Virus genome (UHGV): UHGV-0134778
Source: a virus
Direction: 5' to 3' (one strand)
DNA length: 64,000 bases
Under the pieces are notes generated by a model that saw only the letters and a list, made by a program, of their open reading frames with translations, did not search any database and was not told the DNA's origin. Each line of letters starts with the position of its first letter. Positions within the stretch are counted from its first letter, which is position 1. Positions 13,692-59,651 of this stretch are shown piece by piece. A program made the translations under genes and the position numbers.

Positions 13692-13768
13692 TGGTCTCCA
13701 CGGAGTGATTCGAACACTCGACCTCCTGATCCCAAATCAGGCGCTCTACCAAGCTGAGCTACGCGGAG
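13692..13768 (-). tRNA. tRNA-Pro (anticodon TGG)
   Basis: Hand-folded cloverleaf: 7-bp acceptor stem, D arm GCTC/GAGC, anticodon loop TTTGGGA, T loop TTCGAAT, encoded CCA. Confidence 0.85.
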
Positions 13769-13779
13769 TATTTATTATT

Positions 13780-13854
13780 TGGTGGCCCTGGGTGGAATTG
13801 AACCACCGTCTGGCGATTATGAGTCGCTTGCTTGAACCTTCCAGCTACAGGGCC
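13780..13854 (-). tRNA. tRNA-Met (anticodon CAT; elongator type, could be lysidine-modified Ile2)
   Basis: Acceptor GGCCCTG/CAGGGCC, anticodon loop CTCATAA, T loop TTCAATT, encoded CCA; G1-C72 pair argues against initiator. Confidence 0.8.
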
Positions 13855-13855
13855 A

Positions 13856-13931
13856 TGGTGCTGATGGCAGGACTTGAACCTGCAACCTATTGATTACAAA
13901 TCAATTGCACTGCCAATTGTGCTACATCAGC
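13856..13931 (-). tRNA. tRNA-Thr (anticodon TGT)
   Basis: Perfect 7-bp acceptor stem GCTGATG/CATCAGC, anticodon stem-loop ATTGA-TTTGTAA-TCAAT, T loop TTCAAGT, encoded CCA. Confidence 0.85.
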
Positions 13932-13935
13932 AAAA

Positions 13936-14034
13936 GGTGCTAGGTGATGGAATCGAACCACCTATGTATTCAACGACTACCTCGTCTATTTTCAGGATTA
14001 AAAATCCTCGCCCTTGCCAAAGGGCTTACCTAGC
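13936..14034 (-). tRNA. atypical tRNA-like element (99 nt): possible non-canonical tRNA or tRNA pseudogene
   Basis: Perfect 7-bp acceptor stem (GCTAGGT/ACCTAGC), canonical D arm and T arm (GGTGG-TTCGATT-CCATC), but A8-A9 instead of U8, an AGGATT-TTT-AATCCT hairpin in place of a standard anticodon arm, and a ~31-nt insert containing a second hairpin; no CCA encoded. Confidence 0.35.
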
Positions 14035-14132
14035 GCAATATGTTGACCATGTGGCTAGTCGGCGATGACGACTGTAACATTTGATAATCCGGTTCTGCTT
14101 CCGGCTTTCGCTTAATTACAAGGTCAACAATG

Positions 14133-14223
14133 TGGCGGAGAGTAATGGAATCGAACCATCATCGAGTCATCCTCAACGGGACGGTTTTCAAGACCGCTTG
14201 AGCACCATTGCTCCCTACCCTCC
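14133..14223 (-). tRNA. tRNA-Ser (anticodon TGA), class II with long variable arm
   Basis: Acceptor GGAGGGT/ACTCTCC with one G-U pair, anticodon stem-loop GCGGT-CTTGAAA-ACCGT, ~20-nt variable arm, T loop TTCGATT, encoded CCA. Confidence 0.8.
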
Positions 14224-14337
14224 TTTATAAATTACACTGATAATGACACTGATTTTCGAGCAGTTAGTGACTAGTATAAACGACGATAAATATCAATGTC
14301 ATTATCTGTATGATTTATGCATTTAAAAATATAAATT

Positions 14338-14424
14338 TGGTGGGGAGTGGTGGAGTCGAACCACCCGAGTCGCAATGACAATAGATTTACAGTCTACACC
14401 GCTACCTCTACGGGATAACTCCCC
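14338..14424 (-). tRNA. tRNA-Tyr (anticodon GTA), class II
   Basis: Acceptor GGGGAGT/ACTCCCC, anticodon stem-loop GTAGA-CTGTAAA-TCTAT, variable arm, T arm GGTGG-TTCGACT-CCACC, encoded CCA. Confidence 0.8.
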
Positions 14425-14428
14425 AATT

Positions 14429-14503
14429 TGGCACCCCGTACTGGACTCGAACCAGTGTCAACGGCTTAGAAGGCCGCTGCTTTATCCACTAAGCTAACAG
14501 GGC
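14429..14503 (-). tRNA. tRNA-Arg (anticodon TCT)
   Basis: Acceptor GCCCTGT/ACGGGGT with two G-U pairs, D arm GCTT/AAGC, anticodon stem-loop GCGGC-CTTCTAA-GCCGT, T arm ACTGG-TTCGAGT-CCAGT, encoded CCA. Confidence 0.8.
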
Positions 14504-55420: not shown

Positions 55421-55582
55421 ATCTGGTGCACGATTCCATACCTTAAGCAGTTAATCTCATTACAGAGCGTTTAAAGGCGGCTTACAAGCAACTCTCTATT
55501 TCGAGCGTAGCGAGAACGCACGTCCGTTTTGACCCAAATCACCATACGCTCGGATTTTAACCAAACCCTCGCGGCGTTTCTG

Positions 55583-55611
55583 TTGACACATTACCGCTCC
55601 AGTGATAATAT
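55583..55611 (+). promoter_or_regulatory. sigma70-like promoter
   Basis: TTGACA-N17-TAATAT; lies inside the N-terminal part of ORF-track ORF 55529-55942, arguing that part is not coding. Confidence 0.5.
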
Positions 55612-55643
55612 CCACACATCATTTGGAGAATATGGGATACACA

Positions 55644-55733
55644 ATGAAAACATTGTCAGAGGTTTTGGTGGTGATCCTGATGATCATTACGTCCATAGTG
55701 GCTGTTGCCGGAATACTCACGGGTGGAACATGA
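55644..55733 (+). CDS. small hydrophobic peptide (29 aa), not in the ORF track
   Basis: MKTLSEVLVVILMIITSIVAVAGILTGGT; GGAG RBS downstream of the promoter; stop overlaps the next ATG. Confidence 0.35.
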   Translation: MKTLSEVLVVILMIITSIVAVAGILTGGT

Positions 55734-55942
55734 TAAACACACATGCATCTGAAGAGACATCCAAAGGAGTGACTATATGTCCCTTGGCTGAGCCAGTGAA
55801 AGAGGAAAACTTAGATTCTGAAGATTCTCCATCTTCGCTCCAGGTAGATCCTGAGGCTGATGACCTAACGTGGGAAGACATCGTAGACATCTGGTTCTCC
55901 ATTATGCCTGAGCACGAAGAGTTCAGAGGTGGCAGACTATGA
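55730..55942 (+). CDS. hypothetical acidic protein
   Basis: C-terminal 70 aa of ORF-track ORF 55529-55942, starting at an internal ATG coupled to the upstream peptide; alternative is the full 137-aa ORF. Confidence 0.35.
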   Translation: MINTHASEETSKGVTICPLAEPVKEENLDSEDSPSSLQVDPEADDLTWEDIVDIWFSIMPEHEEFRGGRL

Positions 55943-56063
55943 AGCACCGAGCCCACACAGGTTCCTCATGCTAAAGCATGGCCTGAAGAGGCAAACGTGC
56001 ATAATTCCTGTGCATTGGAACGTATAAAACCCTGTTCACACTCTCATTTCTAGAGGAGATTTC

Positions 56064-56279
56064 ATGAAGATAGAAATATTTGGTGGAGCTGACAACACTT
56101 GTGGCCTGATTTACCTCGAATTCGATGAATCGTACCTGCCAGAAGTGTTAAACATGGATTCTGTTGCTGAGGCTTTGGGAGTAAGTCCTAAAGATCTCTA
56201 CTCTGGTGCTGAGATTGATGGTTGGGAGGAGACCATGAACATCGATTTCAGTGAAGTAGGTGATGAACCGCTGGACTGA
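56064..56279 (+). CDS. hypothetical acidic protein (MKIEIF N-terminus)
   Basis: 71-aa ORF with GGAG RBS; last plus-strand gene before the non-coding region. Confidence 0.45.
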   Translation: MKIEIFGGADNTCGLIYLEFDESYLPEVLNMDSVAEALGVSPKDLYSGAEIDGWEETMNIDFSEVGDEPLD

Positions 56280-57804
56280 CACACAATTAGTTGCCCGGCT
56301 AAAGTGCTGGAAGCACCCATAACATCTTCCAACTAAATTTCCTACCAACACAGTTACTTACCCACCACACATGACTGTTTGCTTGTTTAGTGAGCAGTCA
56401 TCCCTTGACATTCTTGCCTATCTTGATAAAATTAAGTTCTTCTCTTTTCTTTTACCGAGTAATTCGGGTTTTCTGTTCTCTTCGGTTTGAAGGGGTATGG
56501 AGATACACCTGAGTGAACAGGGTGAACAACCGAACCTTTAGCTATGGCATTAGCATGGCGAAGCGGACGGGTGACGAAAGAGGGGCCGGAGGACACCAGT
56601 CACTGCCATATAGTATATGGGTGATAACCTGAAGAGTCTGAATAAGTGTTTAAGTACCAGTCAGAGGAAAAGGTGAATGGTAGCCGAAGGGGGAGGGGGG
56701 TTTCTTATATCTTTAATTTGTATACTTTATATACACTTGTAAACCAATTCAATTAGGATCTGTTTACCACACAAAGTGGATGGAGACAAATATCACCTAT
56801 TAAACTTGAATTATTTATAGAAAATACCACAACACTACTTAAGTCTTTGATTTTACACACAAATCCTACAGATACTCACCCTCCATATTTAACATACTTG
56901 TAACATATCCCATACTCTACCTGTCTGATCAATTTACCCAACTACATCCCCATATTTTTCCTGTCTGTACTACCCCTGCCCCGCCGGGAGTCCCGTCATA
57001 TCTGGCTTCCCAGCAAATATCACACCCACAAATATCATTGCCTGAAGAGGGTTTCATCCCATAATACACACCTTGCCTGAAGAGCGATTCATACACCAAC
57101 TAAATTTTTTAATTGACCCCTCCCCGCCGCCGGAGAGGTTGGCTTTTCCCACACAGGCCTGAAGAGTCAGCCAGAAATATCTGAACAGGCCCAGTTATAC
57201 CACGATTTTGACATGACCGACAGGAGTGCTACCCTGTCAGGAGCCGGTAGCGACTGGAGTGCTGCCAGGCGGACGAAATGGGAATACTTCTCATTCTTAT
57301 AACAATTCTCAAATATCGAGGCAGTGAGGCAAATTAATAGGTGAGGCCGTTCACACAGTGGCACAACATTTGCAACCTATCTTGTGGGGTGAATGAGAAT
57401 ACCTATCATTGTGAGAATAGTTATCATTACGGGCAATTTAACATAATACCCATTATGCGCACCACTGGCGATACATACAGGGATTGATAACATGGGTTAC
57501 TGTTTACGCACATAACAATTATATTTCTTACTATTTGTGCGGGATATAGTTAGCAACCAATAGATTAGATATTGACCTGCGGACTTCTGACCGTCCAGAC
57601 GTCTAAACGCCCACACAACAAGGGTTATACATACATTCCTGAATGTAAACAGGGCCGCAAAAATGCTACCATACCAGTTTGTAAATTTTTCATGCAGCAC
57701 TTGACAAAGAGGAGAAAAACTTGTCTGACACTTTTGCCACTTTTGACACTTTTACCTTTGACACAATATGACACAATAACGGCTGTTACTATTCCATATC
57801 TCAC

Positions 57805-57858
57805 TGTTTACGCATAGACTGTTTACGCCTGAATAGTTTACGCCCAAACTGTTTACAC
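57805..57858. repeat. four direct repeats of TGTTTACGC-like 9-mers with 15-bp period
   Basis: Copies at 57805, 57820, 57835 and 57850 (TGTTTACGC, TGTTTACGC, AGTTTACGC, TGTTTACAC). Confidence 0.8.
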
Positions 57859-57869
57859 AGAGATGATGA

Positions 57870-58163
57870 GCCATGCCATTCGTTTGCATGAAAACAATTA
57901 ACAAGATAACAATTAACAAGTTAATAATCTTTCGCTGGCTATGCCAGGTGACTAGGTCACCCCTTCGGGCGTTTATATGACATAATATAAAAGCAGGGCA
58001 ACTATTAGAAGATCTATAGTTGCCTTGCTTGTTATGTCATGATTAACTAAATACAAGGCAACTATGATCTGAGTAATAGATTGCAGAAAAACTATCACGG
58101 GGGTGATGGTTACTGCTTTTATATTATGTCGCGACTCCGTCGCGCCATGCCATTCGTTTGCAT
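57870..58163. repeat. composite repeat locus: 20-bp direct repeats flanking inverted repeats and a 28-bp palindrome
   Basis: GCCATGCCATTCGTTTGCAT at 57870-57889 and 58144-58163; inverted 18-mer TGACATAATATAAAAGCAG at ~57978-57996 vs ~58113-58130; palindrome GGCAACTAT-N10-ATAGTTGCC at ~57997-58024. Confidence 0.75.
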
Positions 58164-58823
58164 AGTTGCCTTATTGTTACAGGTAAAATAATTACATTAT
58201 TAATTATTTCTTATCTTTCTCTTAGTCATCTAATGATTCCAGTCAGTATAGTAATGTACAGTAAACATTAGACGACTAAAGATTTCTCTGTTTATGATAA
58301 CTCATCGTGATAATTTCGGGCTGTTTACGAAAAATGTTGACACCTGAGCTGATTTATGTTATGCAGTCTACACGAATAATTATTTTATGCAGGTATTGAC
58401 TATTCCGTTATTCTGTGGTTGGAATAAATACTTTGCAGGCTATAGAATGGCGTGCGTACGTGAATTCTGAGATCTGGCGGCTATAGTTATACTCGATTTT
58501 TCGCGTAGAACACGCTTTAGATGCTGTGTAAGTGTATGACTTATAAAGATTTTTAGTTGTTGACAAGATATTGGAGATGTGCATCAGGTTAAAATTTGTG
58601 CAATAGCGGCATTACGTGCACTTTTGGGAGAGAAAACGGGTAAAAATGGACTTGCTACCACACAATGAAAAATTATGCAATAGTTATTTTCCATGTATAT
58701 TTGTACAGTATGTGGGATTGATGGCTAGTCAATTATTCCACTTGCCAGGTAGGGCCGTTTATGGTAGGAGAAGAGCAGACAAAAAGAAAGGGGCCTAAGC
58801 CCCTTGATAATTCAGTTAAAAAA

Positions 58824-59243
58824 TTATAATGATTCGTATATTTCAAAAATCCGATTTGCCAGGTCGTTACGGTAGCTGAATTTTTCCTCACGTTTGATCA
58901 TAAGATCTTTATAGCCGTACTCTTTAAGCACTTCATTAACTTTATGGCGGCATACTTTCATATTATCCTGCGCGTCACCAATAAATCTGTTGCTATGGTG
59001 CATGGCTTTAATTTCTTCTTCCAGGACCAGGGCAACTATGCGGACCGGATCAAGCTGATAGGCGGTAACATCCATGCGGCATTGTAAACGGCTTTTTACG
59101 TCTGCCACCGGATATACTGCAACCTCTTCCCCGTCAACATTGACAATAATTAGTTTACCATCGATTTCGAATCCTTTCGCCGCCGGACCGTGACAAAAAG
59201 CGTTATCAAAGCTATATGCCGGATTATTAGATTTAATGTTCAT
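58824..59243 (-). CDS. hypothetical protein
   Basis: 139-aa ORF with AGAGGT RBS and promoter-like element upstream. Confidence 0.5.
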   Translation of the reverse strand: MNIKSNNPAYSFDNAFCHGPAAKGFEIDGKLIIVNVDGEEVAVYPVADVKSRLQCRMDVTAYQLDPVRIVALVLEEEIKAMHHSNRFIGDAQDNMKVCRHKVNEVLKEYGYKDLMIKREEKFSYRNDLANRIFEIYESL

Positions 59244-59292
59244 GGTGTTTTTACCTCTTAGTTAATTTTCTTACAACTTCCCTTCAAAAAAG

Positions 59293-59322
59293 AATATAGC
59301 AAAACTGCCGATCCCTGTCAAC
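59293..59322 (-). promoter_or_regulatory. sigma70-like promoter with palindrome over the -35 element
   Basis: On minus strand TTGACA-N18-TATATT; -35 embedded in inverted repeat ATCCCTG-gttgac-AGGGAT. Confidence 0.5.
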
Positions 59323-59387
59323 CAGGGATAGCGTAATTTTTATGTGATCAAGGGGCTTTATTGCCCCTGACCATGTAACTTGTTGTA

Positions 59388-59651
59388 TTATTTGTTGCTC
59401 ATCCAGTTTTCCCAAGCTGCCTGATAATCTGCCTCACTACGGCGGATCTCTTCTTGCTCTTCAAGGCGGATCTCTTCTTCCAGGTACCCCAAGATGTCAG
59501 CCTTTTTAGTCTGGCGTAGCATCCAGTCATCTTTTTTGCGAGTGAAGATCTTATAAGCTTTCTCGCAAACCTCTTTTTTGCTACCTTTCTGGACTTCAAG
59601 AACACGATAAGCCATATATTGAACTAATTTGAGCTGATCAAGACGTTTCAT
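59388..59651 (-). CDS. hypothetical protein
   Basis: 87-aa ORF with GAGGTAA RBS. Confidence 0.5.
   Translation of the reverse strand: MKRLDQLKLVQYMAYRVLEVQKGSKKEVCEKAYKIFTRKKDDWMLRQTKKADILGYLEEEIRLEEQEEIRRSEADYQAAWENWMSNK

Follow-up and report, generated by a model that had tools for sequence, protein, structure and literature searches.

An interval of 2.5 kb between two converging gene blocks raises the question of what a phage keeps in DNA that appears to encode no protein. It spans positions 56280 to 58823 of the window, by which is meant the whole stretch of 64,000 nucleotides analysed here (UHGV virus genome UHGV-0134778), and the window is that of a Vequintavirus, an rV5-like myovirus of E. 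coli. As the first-pass annotation had placed it, the region lies between the last plus-strand gene, which stops at 56279, and the first minus-strand gene, which encodes 139 aa (59243-58824). The accompanying statement that it contains no ORF of 60 aa or more is inexact, as GTG and TTG starts give frames of 81, 67, 65 and 60 aa, but all four are at chance level. The longest compares with 82 +/- 17 aa in shuffles of the region, while every other 2.5-kb segment of the 64 kb (113/113) has an ORF of at least 102 aa, with a median of 249 aa. Across 19 relatives, variable sites in the flanking genes are in excess at the third codon position (10/4/35, 11/6/56, 9/4/45 and 22/13/59); no ORF of the region shows codon periodicity of its variable sites (p 0.28-0.93) and, over the region as a whole, the distribution by position is flat (225/231/213). 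Pfam and PHROG searches with the ORFs of the region gave zero family matches. Since ORF lengths equal the shuffled expectation, codon periodicity is absent and no family is matched, the region is truly non-coding.

Curated annotations of relatives (rV5, the BASEL phages and LL12) also leave the interval empty. Its equivalent in rV5 (104014-106617, between ORF163 and ORF164) is drawn as an unexplained 'non-coding' box on the published genome map, and no products from it were reported in the rV5 shotgun proteome (PMC3606486). A search of relatives for ordinary genes at this place, which would have spoken for a disrupted coding region, returned none of that kind; the one real gene found at the corresponding place in a relative encodes a mobile HNH endonuclease and belongs to an uncultured sister clade. 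That the region consists of decayed coding sequence (pseudogenes) or of unrecognised small genes is extremely improbable. It is true that automatic annotation has in some cases placed as many as 16 tiny ORFs here, and that two metagenomic relatives (L033/L034) have a 208-aa ORF call. However, the variation lacks codon periodicity, 14-, 26- and 58-nt indels fall in the best-conserved block, ORF lengths are those of shuffled sequence, and there are no family matches, the 208-aa ORF included; this ORF, which is truncated differently in each relative and spans the terminal-repeat boundary described below, is regarded as a chance ORF. A host origin was also considered and set aside, the only match in 36 E. 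coli genomes being 40 nt at 90 % identity (E 1e-3), taken as chance. ARAGORN detected no tRNA or tmRNA in the region. The features discussed below are collected in Table 1.

Table 1. Positions, in window coordinates, of features in and beside the non-coding region
Feature	Position	Strand	Basis or remark
Last gene of the plus-strand block, 71 aa, PHROG of unknown function	56064-56279	+	Codon periodicity 10/4/35
Predicted strong sigma-70 promoter	56405-56432	+	TTGACA, 16-nt spacer, extended -10 TGaTAAAAT
Candidate structured non-coding RNA, ~267 nt	56439-56705	+	Conservation, promoter, hairpins
AT-rich tract, 27 % GC, 165 nt, one CTGTTTAC copy at 56760	56706-56870		Directly after the G-run
Three direct (G)CCTGAAGAG copies (57041, 57076, 57158), candidate terminase or other protein-binding sites	57040-57166	+	Repeat search
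65-aa mechanical ORF	57167-57364	-	GTG/TTG starts allowed
Indel hotspot, 33-nt GGAGTGCTRCC duplication, missing in about half of relatives	57215-57267		Relatives
Direct terminal repeat, 458 bp, single copy here	57268-57725		Record ends, HdK5 repeat, literature
67-aa mechanical ORF	57497-57700	-	GTG/TTG starts allowed
81-aa mechanical ORF	57572-57817	+	GTG/TTG starts allowed
TGACA(C)-core array, 9-10 bp period	57726-57778	+	Starts exactly at right repeat boundary; pi 0.35
Four ACTGTTTACGC-type (YTRTTYAC) units, 15-bp spacing	57803-57859	+	Repeat search
20-nt perfect direct repeat GCCATGCCATTCGTTTGCAT, first copy	57870-57889	+	Brackets palindromic block
Branched DNA palindrome	57935-58185		Folding, both strands, conservation
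AT-rich spacer, moderate conservation, 35 % GC	58186-58787		GC content, diversity across relatives
60-aa mechanical ORF	58616-58798	+	GTG/TTG starts allowed
Intrinsic terminator of leftward gene block	58788-58805	-	Sequence
139-aa accessory gene, last before genome end	58824-59243	-	ORF and relatives

Taken as a whole, the region is likely to be explained by packaging of exact-length DNA with short direct terminal repeats, such that it comprises the end region of the chromosome together with an RNA unit. The first-pass annotation had listed a packaging or terminal-repeat boundary among its candidate functions, and that suggestion is borne out, as the 458-bp Vequintavirus repeat maps to 57268-57725. 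Terminal repeats of 458/459 bp have been reported for Vequintaviruses (PMC6563267, PMC7471380, PMC8407724), with fixed termini reported from sequencing reads for Gotham (PMC7471380) and use of PhageTerm for the bov phages (PMC8407724); the repeat itself is therefore published knowledge. In HdK5, the first 459 nt equal the last 459 nt with zero mismatches, and the boundaries map to window positions 57268 and 57725. Four deposited records start at the first of these positions and three end at the second, each with two places, and ECP2309, YN3, bov10K2, bov22_2 and Pr121LW, which come from separate laboratories, also start or end exactly on the repeat. The relatives with mapped ends are 94-98 % identical to the window over the repeat, and it is from them that we infer the termini of this phage; by this correspondence, the region is the genome-end (concatemer-junction) region, the left physical end of the linear virion DNA beginning at 57268 and the right physical end stopping at 57725. 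A single copy of the repeat occurs in the window, as in ~110/120 records, which is the state of a concatemer junction or a collapsed assembly; ECP2309 and YN3 have two copies, one at each end.

These two-ended records bear directly on another reading, in which the genome is circularly permuted and packaged by headful, the region is a termination spacer of the converging operons, and the shared record ends are copied conventions. The rV5 paper, which offered no explanation for the boxed interval, indeed states a 'circularly permuted genome', and most GenBank records start at arbitrary positions. Still, the repeat occurs at each end of HdK5, ECP2309 and YN3, and a mere spacer would neither exceed coding sequence in conservation nor keep a palindrome architecture across subfamilies (see below), making circular permutation very improbable. 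The layout of a more distant relative agrees with a mapped end here. In Schickermooser, a Phapecoctavirus of another subfamily, the end reads in the order 139-aa gene, terminator, a non-coding stretch of ~0.9 kb that contains a palindromic block, and an exact 329-bp repeat. The 139-aa protein is 88 % identical in Phapecoctavirus, where its gene is also the last before the mapped end, and it is missing from FV3, SYGMH1, HdK5 and pangalan. A terminator equivalent to that at 58788-58805 is annotated in HdK5 and Schickermooser; the rV5 paper expected bidirectional terminators and found none. The 71-aa gene on the other flank is restricted to this genus and is thus of no use as a lead to more distant relatives.

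Within the Vequintavirus group, the right boundary of the repeat is a sharp edge between the conserved repeat and hypervariable arrays, and ~20 conserved nt ending in GCGACWGGAGYGCTGCCAG lie between the indel hotspot and the left cut. The repeat sequence is unalignable in the L007 clade. Two motif readings of the repeat were rejected: as Fur boxes, its TGAGAAT/ATTCTCA motifs give a best site with five mismatches, no better than elsewhere in the window, and a 9-mer in common with the Schickermooser repeat is attributed to chance, ~1 being expected by our own estimate.

Both cut positions are surrounded by short repeats. The repeat families noted in the first pass are real and non-random, as judged by the copy counts of CTGTTTAC, CCTGAAGAG and GGCAACTAT and by the 20-nt direct and 18-bp inverted repeats; the TTGACA-like elements noted alongside them are present but only marginally enriched (7/84, binomial p 0.05). 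On the left, the (G)CCTGAAGAG triplet lies 100-230 bp upstream of the repeat boundary. CCTGAAGAG has four copies within 540 nt, and it occurs five times in the diverged L007 interval, with which block 56974-57057 is among the few segments that can still be aligned. At the right cut, a TGTC-T-GACA palindrome straddles the boundary itself, and the TGACA(C) array beyond it is hypervariable in spacers and copy number; the L026 clade has a CAA-rich tract in its place. The YTRTTYAC array that follows is found as 3-8 same-orientation units in every Vequintavirus lineage, with further copies inside the repeat at 57500 (+) and 57645 (-) and others at 56760 and 58321. Seven of the eight CTGTTTAC copies in the window fall in the region, where 2.2 would be expected in the whole window, and a combined CTGTTTAC and TTGACAC site is located at 58321-58343, within the AT-rich spacer. 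The idea that one lineage had exchanged its CTGTTTAC units for CTGTTCAC in concert was discarded, the variants being mixed within phages. Because the TGACA array is replaced in L026 and the repeat is unalignable in L007, the specific motifs are not universal.

Beyond the arrays lies a strongly folding block. An outer stem of 18 perfect bp (57979-57996 / 58113-58130) encloses nested hairpins of GGCAACTAT units, of which there are four exact copies, and a hairpin at 58090-58111. The folding energy of -54.5 kcal/mol, compared with -24.0 +/- 3.2 kcal/mol (z -9.7), is matched on the opposite strand (-53.7 kcal/mol), and only one of 84 pairs is a G-T wobble. With both strands folding equally and almost no wobble pairs, the block was rejected as an RNA; it is a symmetrical, cruciform-capable DNA palindrome. 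Its diversity is low (pi ~0.02), and it is found in 118 GenBank records (118/~119 genomes) at 95-99 % identity. L007 (z -10.8), L026 (z -9.7) and Schickermooser (z -7.1) each have an analogous block at the corresponding relative position; those of the diverged clades and of Phapecoctavirus share the architecture with no sequence similarity. This conserved architecture appears to have been undescribed before. With the second copy of GCCATGCCATTCGTTTGCAT, at 58144-58163, the palindromic block is bracketed by a 20-nt direct repeat without mismatch, and the FV3 record, which lacks the block and has a single 20-nt copy, looks like a clean 'empty site'. Both facts would suit a small mobile or selfish insertion, MITE-like and with a 20-bp duplication, rather than a functional part of the end. 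Yet there is one copy per genome and no others in the window, the block is nearly ubiquitous at high identity, and the diverged clades and Phapecoctavirus have sequence-unrelated blocks with this architecture in the corresponding relative place, so that a selfish insertion is improbable. As for FV3, the palindromic block may be dispensable, or the FV3 assembly may have lost it.

The other end of the region, ahead of the left cut, resembles an RNA gene. The predicted promoter matches the consensus at 11/12 positions; its hexamers and TG are kept among relatives while the spacer diverges, reaching 18 nt in L008/L029/L036, and the sister clade has TTGCAA-17-TGnTATAAT in the same place, again with invariant hexamers and a variable spacer. 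Conservation begins at the predicted transcription start and stops after a G5AG6 run (56689-56700) and UUUCUU, which form the 3' end of the block. Within these limits are a CU-rich 5' end, the hairpins H1, H2 and H5, and the invariant blocks CUGAGUGAACAGGGUGAACAACCGAAC, CCUGAAGAG and GUUUAAGUACCAG; 56490-56705 is 65 % purine, which upholds the purine-rich patch of the first pass. The block is 97-100 % identical in 119/119 records, with pi 0.00-0.03 vs 0.04-0.14 in the flanking genes, and constraint on its sequence exceeds that on the neighbouring proteins. Stems and apparently single-stranded blocks alike are nearly invariant.

The fold was compared among clades. Three indels across clades are each the size of a whole hairpin, H5 persists in three clades although its sequence differs among them, and H1, aligned by structure among three clades, has three pairs changed on both sides; the variation in H2 consists of U-G/U-A transitions only. 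The formal covariation count is one pair changed on both sides, an initial count of eight having been inflated by a spurious E = 0.22 match that was then dropped; the automated MAFFT and Infernal alignments place the H1 of the sister clade out of register. The whole-molecule folding z-score is -1.26. A covariance model built on the RNA matches every Vequintavirus and sister locus and finds no remote copies in Phapecoctavirus loci, while a scan of both strands of 55500-59500 with Rfam 15 covariance models found nothing at E <= 1. The 3' end has no canonical local terminator hairpin and is not of the Hfq type, and the U-tract after the G-run is not kept in other clades. Based on these comparisons, 56439-56705 is probably a folded, promoter-driven RNA-like element, and it appears to have been previously unannotated and undescribed; the searchable literature yielded no Vequintavirus transcriptome. 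The 'cluster of non-coding RNAs' proposed in the first-pass annotation is thereby reduced to one good candidate RNA gene, the other folding element being the DNA palindrome. Two further readings were dismissed: a hammerhead-like CUGANGA core failed to fit when inspected and has no Rfam match, and a 21-aa ORF with an SD-like sequence at the 3' end crosses the length-polymorphic G-run and variable sequence downstream, and is unconserved.

As a best guess, such an RNA may serve in cis at the chromosome end, a role that we rate about evenly with one in trans. Considered as an account of the locus, it is somewhat unlikely that the ~267-nt RNA is trans-acting, with a regulatory or counter-defence function (e.g. 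by titrating a host nuclease or RNA-binding protein as a sponge or decoy) and an incidental location at the end. A strong constitutive host-type promoter would fire directly after injection, the near-invariant single-stranded blocks suggest base-specific recognition, and in the sister clade the RNA is kept although the HNH insertion shifts its distance to the rest of the end region. Arguing the other way, the RNA belongs to no Rfam family and lacks a canonical terminator or Hfq-type 3' end, and CCUGAAGAG, one of its invariant blocks, recurs three times as DNA beside the cut site, hinting at a link with the end region.

The G-run and what follows it also invite comparison with replication origins, the remaining candidate function of the first-pass annotation. 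In ColE1 RNA II and mitochondrial LSP-CSB II, as would be the case here, a promoter drives a folded RNA of a few hundred nt that has two 3' G-runs and is followed by AT-/U-rich sequence, and the phage encodes a PIF1-like helicase; here, unlike there, the G-run can be explained by an intramolecular helix and hybrid priming is only a proposal. On that proposal, the module of promoter, RNA, G-run and AT-rich DNA (56405-56870) would be a replication origin in which the G5AG6 3' end stays hybridised, as an R-loop or hybrid G-quadruplex, and primes the leading strand into the AT-rich region. The double G-run occurs nowhere else in the 64 kb, and the 165 nt after it have 27 % GC; two G-runs 1-2 nt apart are kept in all three clades, each with an AT-rich tract after them; the CTGTTTAC sites could be initiator sites; and rV5 encodes a T7 gp4-type primase-helicase as well as a PIF1-like helicase (PMC3606486). 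The origin is nonetheless unlikely. The G-run could equally be one half of a closing helix, serving as its 3' strand opposite the CU-rich 5' end, which is just as conserved. Nothing that points to a DnaA box or an initiator turned up, and the HNH gene of the sister clade lies only ~75 nt past the G-run. Cumulative GC skew peaks here but simply tracks transcription direction (PMC3606486) and was therefore rejected as uninformative for an origin. An origin of this kind could coexist with the terminal-repeat explanation. The G-run was separately considered as a KOPS-type site for the neighbouring 87-aa protein, named 'FtsK' in GenBank. That annotation is unsupported, as the protein has no Pfam match to an FtsK gamma domain and falls only in a PHROG of unknown function; since there is no FtsK domain and the GGGNAGGG motif is interrupted in GGGGGATGGGGG variants, the FtsK-gamma/KOPS link was abandoned.

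Returning to exact-length packaging, phages of the T7 type form concatemers with one repeat copy per junction, at which the terminase must cut two fixed sites, and duplication of the repeat needs DNA synthesis. At the Vequintavirus end, the motifs hugging both cuts would be the recognition sites that position the terminase and accessory proteins. This putative set would be made up of the three (G)CCTGAAGAG copies ~100-230 bp outside the left cut and, on the other side, the TGACA(C) array that begins at the right cut, with the YTRTTYAC array next to it. At 210-460 bp inside the same cut, the branched palindrome may be a structural DNA element of end processing or priming, like the hairpin intermediate of T7. 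The strong host-type promoter, ~560 bp before the right-end repeat copy, would fire toward the end and make the ~267-nt RNA; acting in cis, this transcription unit may prime or open the DNA at the end so that it can be replicated or packaged, like T7 phiOR/phiOL. For T7 itself, the need to duplicate the repeat and the occurrence of a hairpin intermediate are documented, and the mechanism is not yet well understood (PMC4281155, PMC13595956).

Several elements of this arrangement have counterparts in known systems. The T7/T3 concatemer junction likewise has an exact short repeat once per junction (160 bp in T7, 458 bp here), short-repeat arrays that directly flank it, and a promoter several hundred bp before the right-end repeat that fires toward the end; details of the T7/T3 SRL/SRR arrays and of phiOR are reportedly those of Dunn & Studier 1983 and Chung & Hinkle 1990. 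It also has a hairpin-capable inverted repeat near the junction, and there too the repeat must be duplicated (PMC4281155, PMC13595956). Unlike T7/T3, the present phage is a myovirus whose genome measures 136 kb; it has no RNA polymerase of its own, so that its promoter is of the host sigma-70 type. Its predicted transcript is long, conserved and likely to be folded, the palindrome is large and branched, the genes at both ends point outwards, each flanking block being transcribed toward a genome end, and there is no sequence similarity. The R-sites of lambda cosB and the hexamer repeats of P1 pac are terminase recognition arrays, although neither phage is known to make such direct terminal repeats. 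They too are clusters of short motif copies within ~50-250 bp of the cleavage site on one or both sides; the motifs differ, and small-terminase binding at the Vequintavirus arrays is purely inferred. In phi29, the pRNA is encoded beside the genome end under an early host-type promoter, replication is protein-primed and no terminase that cuts at specific sequences is known. Both phages would thus have a structured non-coding RNA beside the end of a linear chromosome, with a host-type promoter, the RNA here being a candidate; there is no sequence or structural similarity.

The bolder reading of these parts, which is unlikely, is a previously unrecognised end-processing system, in which the constrained, host-transcribed ~267-nt RNA would act in cis, through priming from its G5AG6 tail or licensing of the terminase, and the branched cruciform would cooperate with it as the hairpin intermediate that duplicates the repeat. 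If true, this would give a concrete, testable mechanism for how phages with direct terminal repeats regenerate their ends.

How phages with exact direct terminal repeats cut their concatemers and regenerate both repeats is still poorly understood (PMC13595956), and Vequintaviruses are abundant, therapeutically used coliphages (BASEL collection, O157 biocontrol). For this group, the cis-acting end region can be described in full, from its two cut sites and three motif arrays to the palindrome, the architecture of which is kept across subfamilies, and FV3 offers a natural deletion variant for comparison. The ~267-nt element, which has a conserved promoter of its own, may well represent a new phage RNA family. 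Finally, most of the ~120 GenBank records have arbitrary starts and no repeat, and the mapping allows their correct re-orientation.

The 2,544-nt interval between the converging gene blocks matches 122 phage records at 88–96 % identity (blastn), nearly all of them from Escherichia phages of the genus Vequintavirus, which are myoviruses like rV5, and in most it is unannotated. On the rV5 map, the equivalent stretch (rV5 104014–106617) is a grey box labelled 'non-coding' between the converging ORF163 and ORF164; the authors expected bidirectional terminators there, found none and offered no explanation (PMC3606486). Because the interval is unannotated in most relatives and 'non-coding' in this published map, the gene-free region noticed in the first-pass annotation is real. 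The accompanying statement that it holds no ORF of at least 60 aa fails literally, since allowing GTG and TTG starts yields ORFs of 81, 67, 65 and 60 aa, but stands in substance, all of them being chance ORFs. The longest (81 aa) compares with 82 ± 17 aa in shuffled sequence, and all other 2.5-kb windows of the 64 kb contain an ORF of 102 aa or longer (median 249). In a 19-phage alignment, variable sites in the flanking genes are in excess at third codon positions (10/4/35, 11/6/56, 9/4/45 and 22/13/59), and within the region they are spread flatly over the codon positions of each ORF (225/231/213 for the whole region); no ORF of the region matched Pfam or PHROGs. The check that had been proposed, for ordinary genes in the equivalent interval of relatives, yielded as the sole real gene a free-standing HNH homing endonuclease (256 aa; phrog_99, E 1.8e-46) in an uncultured sister clade (locus L007, 8716–9486, + strand), a mobile insertion that sits ~75 nt past the RNA candidate described below and explains that clade's longer interval. 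Two metagenomic relatives have a predicted ORF of 208 aa in the interval; it was rejected, as it is Cys/Arg/Trp-rich, differently truncated from relative to relative and without a family. The automatic annotation of PQ511146 (NHEP1) places 16 'hypothetical proteins' of 30–60 aa in the interval, none of them supported, and illustrates over-calling in non-coding phage DNA.

Record ends, the ends of the relative HdK5 and the literature on relatives bear out one of the three functions first proposed for the region, a terminal-repeat or packaging boundary. In blastn, query position 989 (window 57268) coincides with the first base of four records and position 1446 (window 57725) with the last base of three, and all of these records match again at their opposite end. 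When the 458-nt segment alone was the query, it also coincided with the exact start or end of additional records, submitted by separate laboratories, and about eight records carry two copies. Checked directly, the first and last 459 nt of HdK5 are identical, with a left edge that maps to the same left position, between ...GCTGCCAG and GCGGACGAAATGGG, and a right edge that maps to the same right position, between ...AAAAACTTGTC and TGACAC, where the cut is spanned by a TGTC-T-GACA palindrome. Terminus types have been determined with PhageTerm for the bov phages (PMC8407724). The record ends, the HdK5 repeat and the literature therefore supersede the circularly permuted genome that the rV5 paper had described. 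The window holds a single copy of the repeat, as at a concatemer junction, and transcription of both flanking gene blocks runs towards the physical ends. Judged from these sequence comparisons, the genome ends lie in this region; the repeat had already been published for relatives, and its link to the rV5 'non-coding' box had not been made before. In rV5 (NC_011041), it occupies 104973–105431, inside a stretch (104425–105475) with a GC/AT-skew change that the authors ascribed to transcription direction (rV5 paper). Within the window's repeat, 40 nt (57429–57468) match an unannotated chromosomal site at 90 % identity (E 1e-3) in 36 of 5,426 E. coli genomes, including UTI89 and NU14, probably by chance. 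Nineteen UNVERIFIED GenBank records (MG0656xx) labelled as Campylobacter jejuni phages are 87–94 % identical to the region and contain the same repeat and the same RNA; their host labels are doubtful.

Features of the interval and of its counterparts in related clades (conservation as nucleotide diversity, pi, in 60-nt bins; positions are those of the window)
Feature	Position	Clade or phage	Observation
Near-consensus sigma-70 promoter, extended -10	56405–56432		TTGACA-16-TGaTAAAAT
Promoter at equivalent place		Sister clade (loci L007/L039/L040/L043/L047)	TTGCAA-17-TGnTATAAT; boxes invariant, spacer variable; RNA 254–281 nt
RNA version		L026 clade	218 nt
Ultra-conserved block	56340–56700		pi 0.00–0.03 vs 0.04–0.14 in neighbouring genes
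Moderate conservation	56700–57180		
(G)CCTGAAGAG copies outside left cut	57041, 57076, 57158		
Indel hotspot immediately outside left cut	57180–57260		
Terminal repeat	57268–57725		pi 0.02–0.10; 95–99 % identity in 85/120 records
Hypervariable zone, from right cut exactly	57726–57960		pi <= 0.35; many indels
Branched palindrome	57935–58185		
Palindromic block		L026 clade	z -9.7
Palindromic block		L007 clade	z -10.8; sequence not alignable
Palindromic block		Schickermooser (Phapecoctavirus)	z -7.1; ~180–380 bp from mapped 329-bp repeat
Conserved block	58020–58140		pi ~0.02
AT-rich, moderate conservation	58140–58790		

Both cuts are accompanied by arrays of short motifs. Besides its three direct copies outside the left cut, (G)CCTGAAGAG has a fourth within the RNA candidate, and the interval of the L007 clade carries five although the surrounding sequence is not alignable. 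In the 64 kb, CCTGAAGAG occurs eight times, always on the + strand, vs 0.62 expected for both strands together; four copies fall within 56628–57166 and the others (31542, 32409, 39841 and 55982) in + strand coding sequence. From the right cut onwards, TGACA(C)-core units recur in an array with a period of 9–10 bp, and after them come four ACTGTTTACGC-type units spaced 15 bp apart. Seven of the eight window copies of CTGTTTAC lie in the region (2.2 expected in the whole window), two of them, one inverted, inside the repeat. YTRTTYAC units were present in every lineage compared (3–8 copies, same orientation); the TGACA array changes more quickly, a CAA-rich tract taking its place in one clade. 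The terminase-recognition regions of lambda cosB and P1 pac consist of clustered short repeats beside cleavage sites, and the T7 terminal repeat is flanked by short-repeat arrays; by likeness to these systems, the arrays around the cuts may be bound by protein.

Between the repeat and the first - strand gene, lies a palindrome whose perfect outer stem of 18 bp surrounds nested hairpins made of four GGCAACTAT units; its folding energy is -54.5 kcal/mol vs -24.0 ± 3.2 in shuffles (z = -9.7). The two strands are equally stable when folded (-54.5 and -53.7), and only one of the 84 pairs is a G-T wobble; the palindrome is therefore a Watson–Crick, cruciform-capable DNA element and not a strand-specific RNA. 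A sliding-window scan found one such block in each of several lineages at the same relative position, between the repeat and the first - strand gene (139 aa), with a recurring design of an AT-rich outer stem of 15–18 bp and two or three inner hairpins; conservation of structure and position but not of sequence speaks for a function. In T7-type phages the repeat must be duplicated while concatemers are processed, and a hairpin intermediate that contains it has been observed (PMC4281155, citing Chung & Hinkle 1990). A perfect 20-nt direct repeat brackets the block, and in FV3 (NC_019517) everything between the two copies (equivalent to window 57890–58163) is absent, one copy being left. Since 118 other records have the block, including SYGMH1 of the same species, it is either dispensable in culture or was lost in the FV3 assembly; the FV3 gap is thus either a real repeat-mediated deletion or palindrome loss in cloning or assembly.

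The 139-aa protein encoded by that first - strand gene (58824–59243), of unknown function, is 88 % identical in ~150-kb phAPEC8-like phages of another subfamily (locus L010, 2324–2743), where its gene is again the last before the mapped genome end. It is missing in FV3, SYGMH1, HdK5 and pangalan, and has the appearance of an 'end-proximal' accessory gene that is exchanged horizontally. Nearby (59388–59651, - strand), an 87-aa product is named 'DNA translocase FtsK' in several GenBank records; the name has no Pfam support, the sole match being a PHROG of unknown function, and looks like a propagated mis-annotation. Elsewhere in the window, a tRNA cluster (13692–14503) contains six ordinary tRNAs (Pro, Met, Thr, Ser, Tyr and Arg) and, at 13936–14034 (- strand), a 'tRNA-???' of 99 nt for which ARAGORN gives an anticodon of four bases (atcc); this may be a tRNA with an intron or of an unusual kind, or else a miscall.

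Upstream of the ultra-conserved block, the promoter keeps its hexamers and TG in the most divergent Vequintavirus lineages, with the spacer altered and lengthened to 18 nt. Near-invariance extends from the predicted start (~56438) to just past GGGGGAGGGGGG-UUUCUU (~56705), and this block is 97–100 % identical in 119 of 119 GenBank records. Pattern scans of IMG/VR and metagenomes found two further clades. The sister clade, for which GenBank yielded no isolate, shares with the window the identity islands CUGAGUGAACAGNGUGAACANCCGAA, CCUGAAGAG and GUUUAAGUACCAG, the CU-rich 5' end and the double G-run. Independent folds for each clade recover a 5'-CU/3'-G closing helix, hairpin H1, a long CU/GA hairpin (H2) and a bulged hairpin (H5). 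On structural alignment, three H1 pairs differ in both bases from clade to clade (C-G to A-U, C-G to G-C and G-C to A-U), the H5 design is preserved on stems of different sequence (GUCAC..GUGAU, ACUGC..GCAGU and ACUG..CAGU), and each of these hairpins is more stable than its own shuffles (z -2.5 to -4.1). Three indels are gains or losses of whole predicted hairpins (+14, ±26 and -58 nt), lengths that exclude coding. The whole-molecule z-score is only -1.26, an automated count gives one pair changed on both sides without one spurious hit (eight with it), and H2 varies by U-G/U-A transitions only. Searches found no Rfam match to the candidate, no canonical terminator at the end of the unit and, in the literature, no Vequintavirus transcriptome. 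On balance, the block is rather probably a transcribed, selected RNA.

Such an RNA could act in cis, like T7 phiOR and phiOL, as an end-proximal transcription unit aiding replication or packaging. It could also be an RNA-primed origin: its double G-run has no counterpart elsewhere in the 64 kb, the 165 nt after it have a GC content of 27 %, and the rV5 gene products include a T7 gp4-type primase-helicase and a PIF1-like helicase (PMC3606486); however, pairing with the conserved CU-rich 5' end accounts for the G-run equally well. About as likely as a role in cis is that of a trans-acting regulator or decoy. The near-invariant, apparently unpaired blocks fit base-specific recognition by a conserved partner. 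What appears to be new for these phages is the detailed map of cis elements around both cut sites, the branched palindrome with an architecture conserved across two subfamilies, and the strongly constrained, promoter-driven RNA candidate of ~267 nt in all Vequintaviruses and uncultured sister clades.
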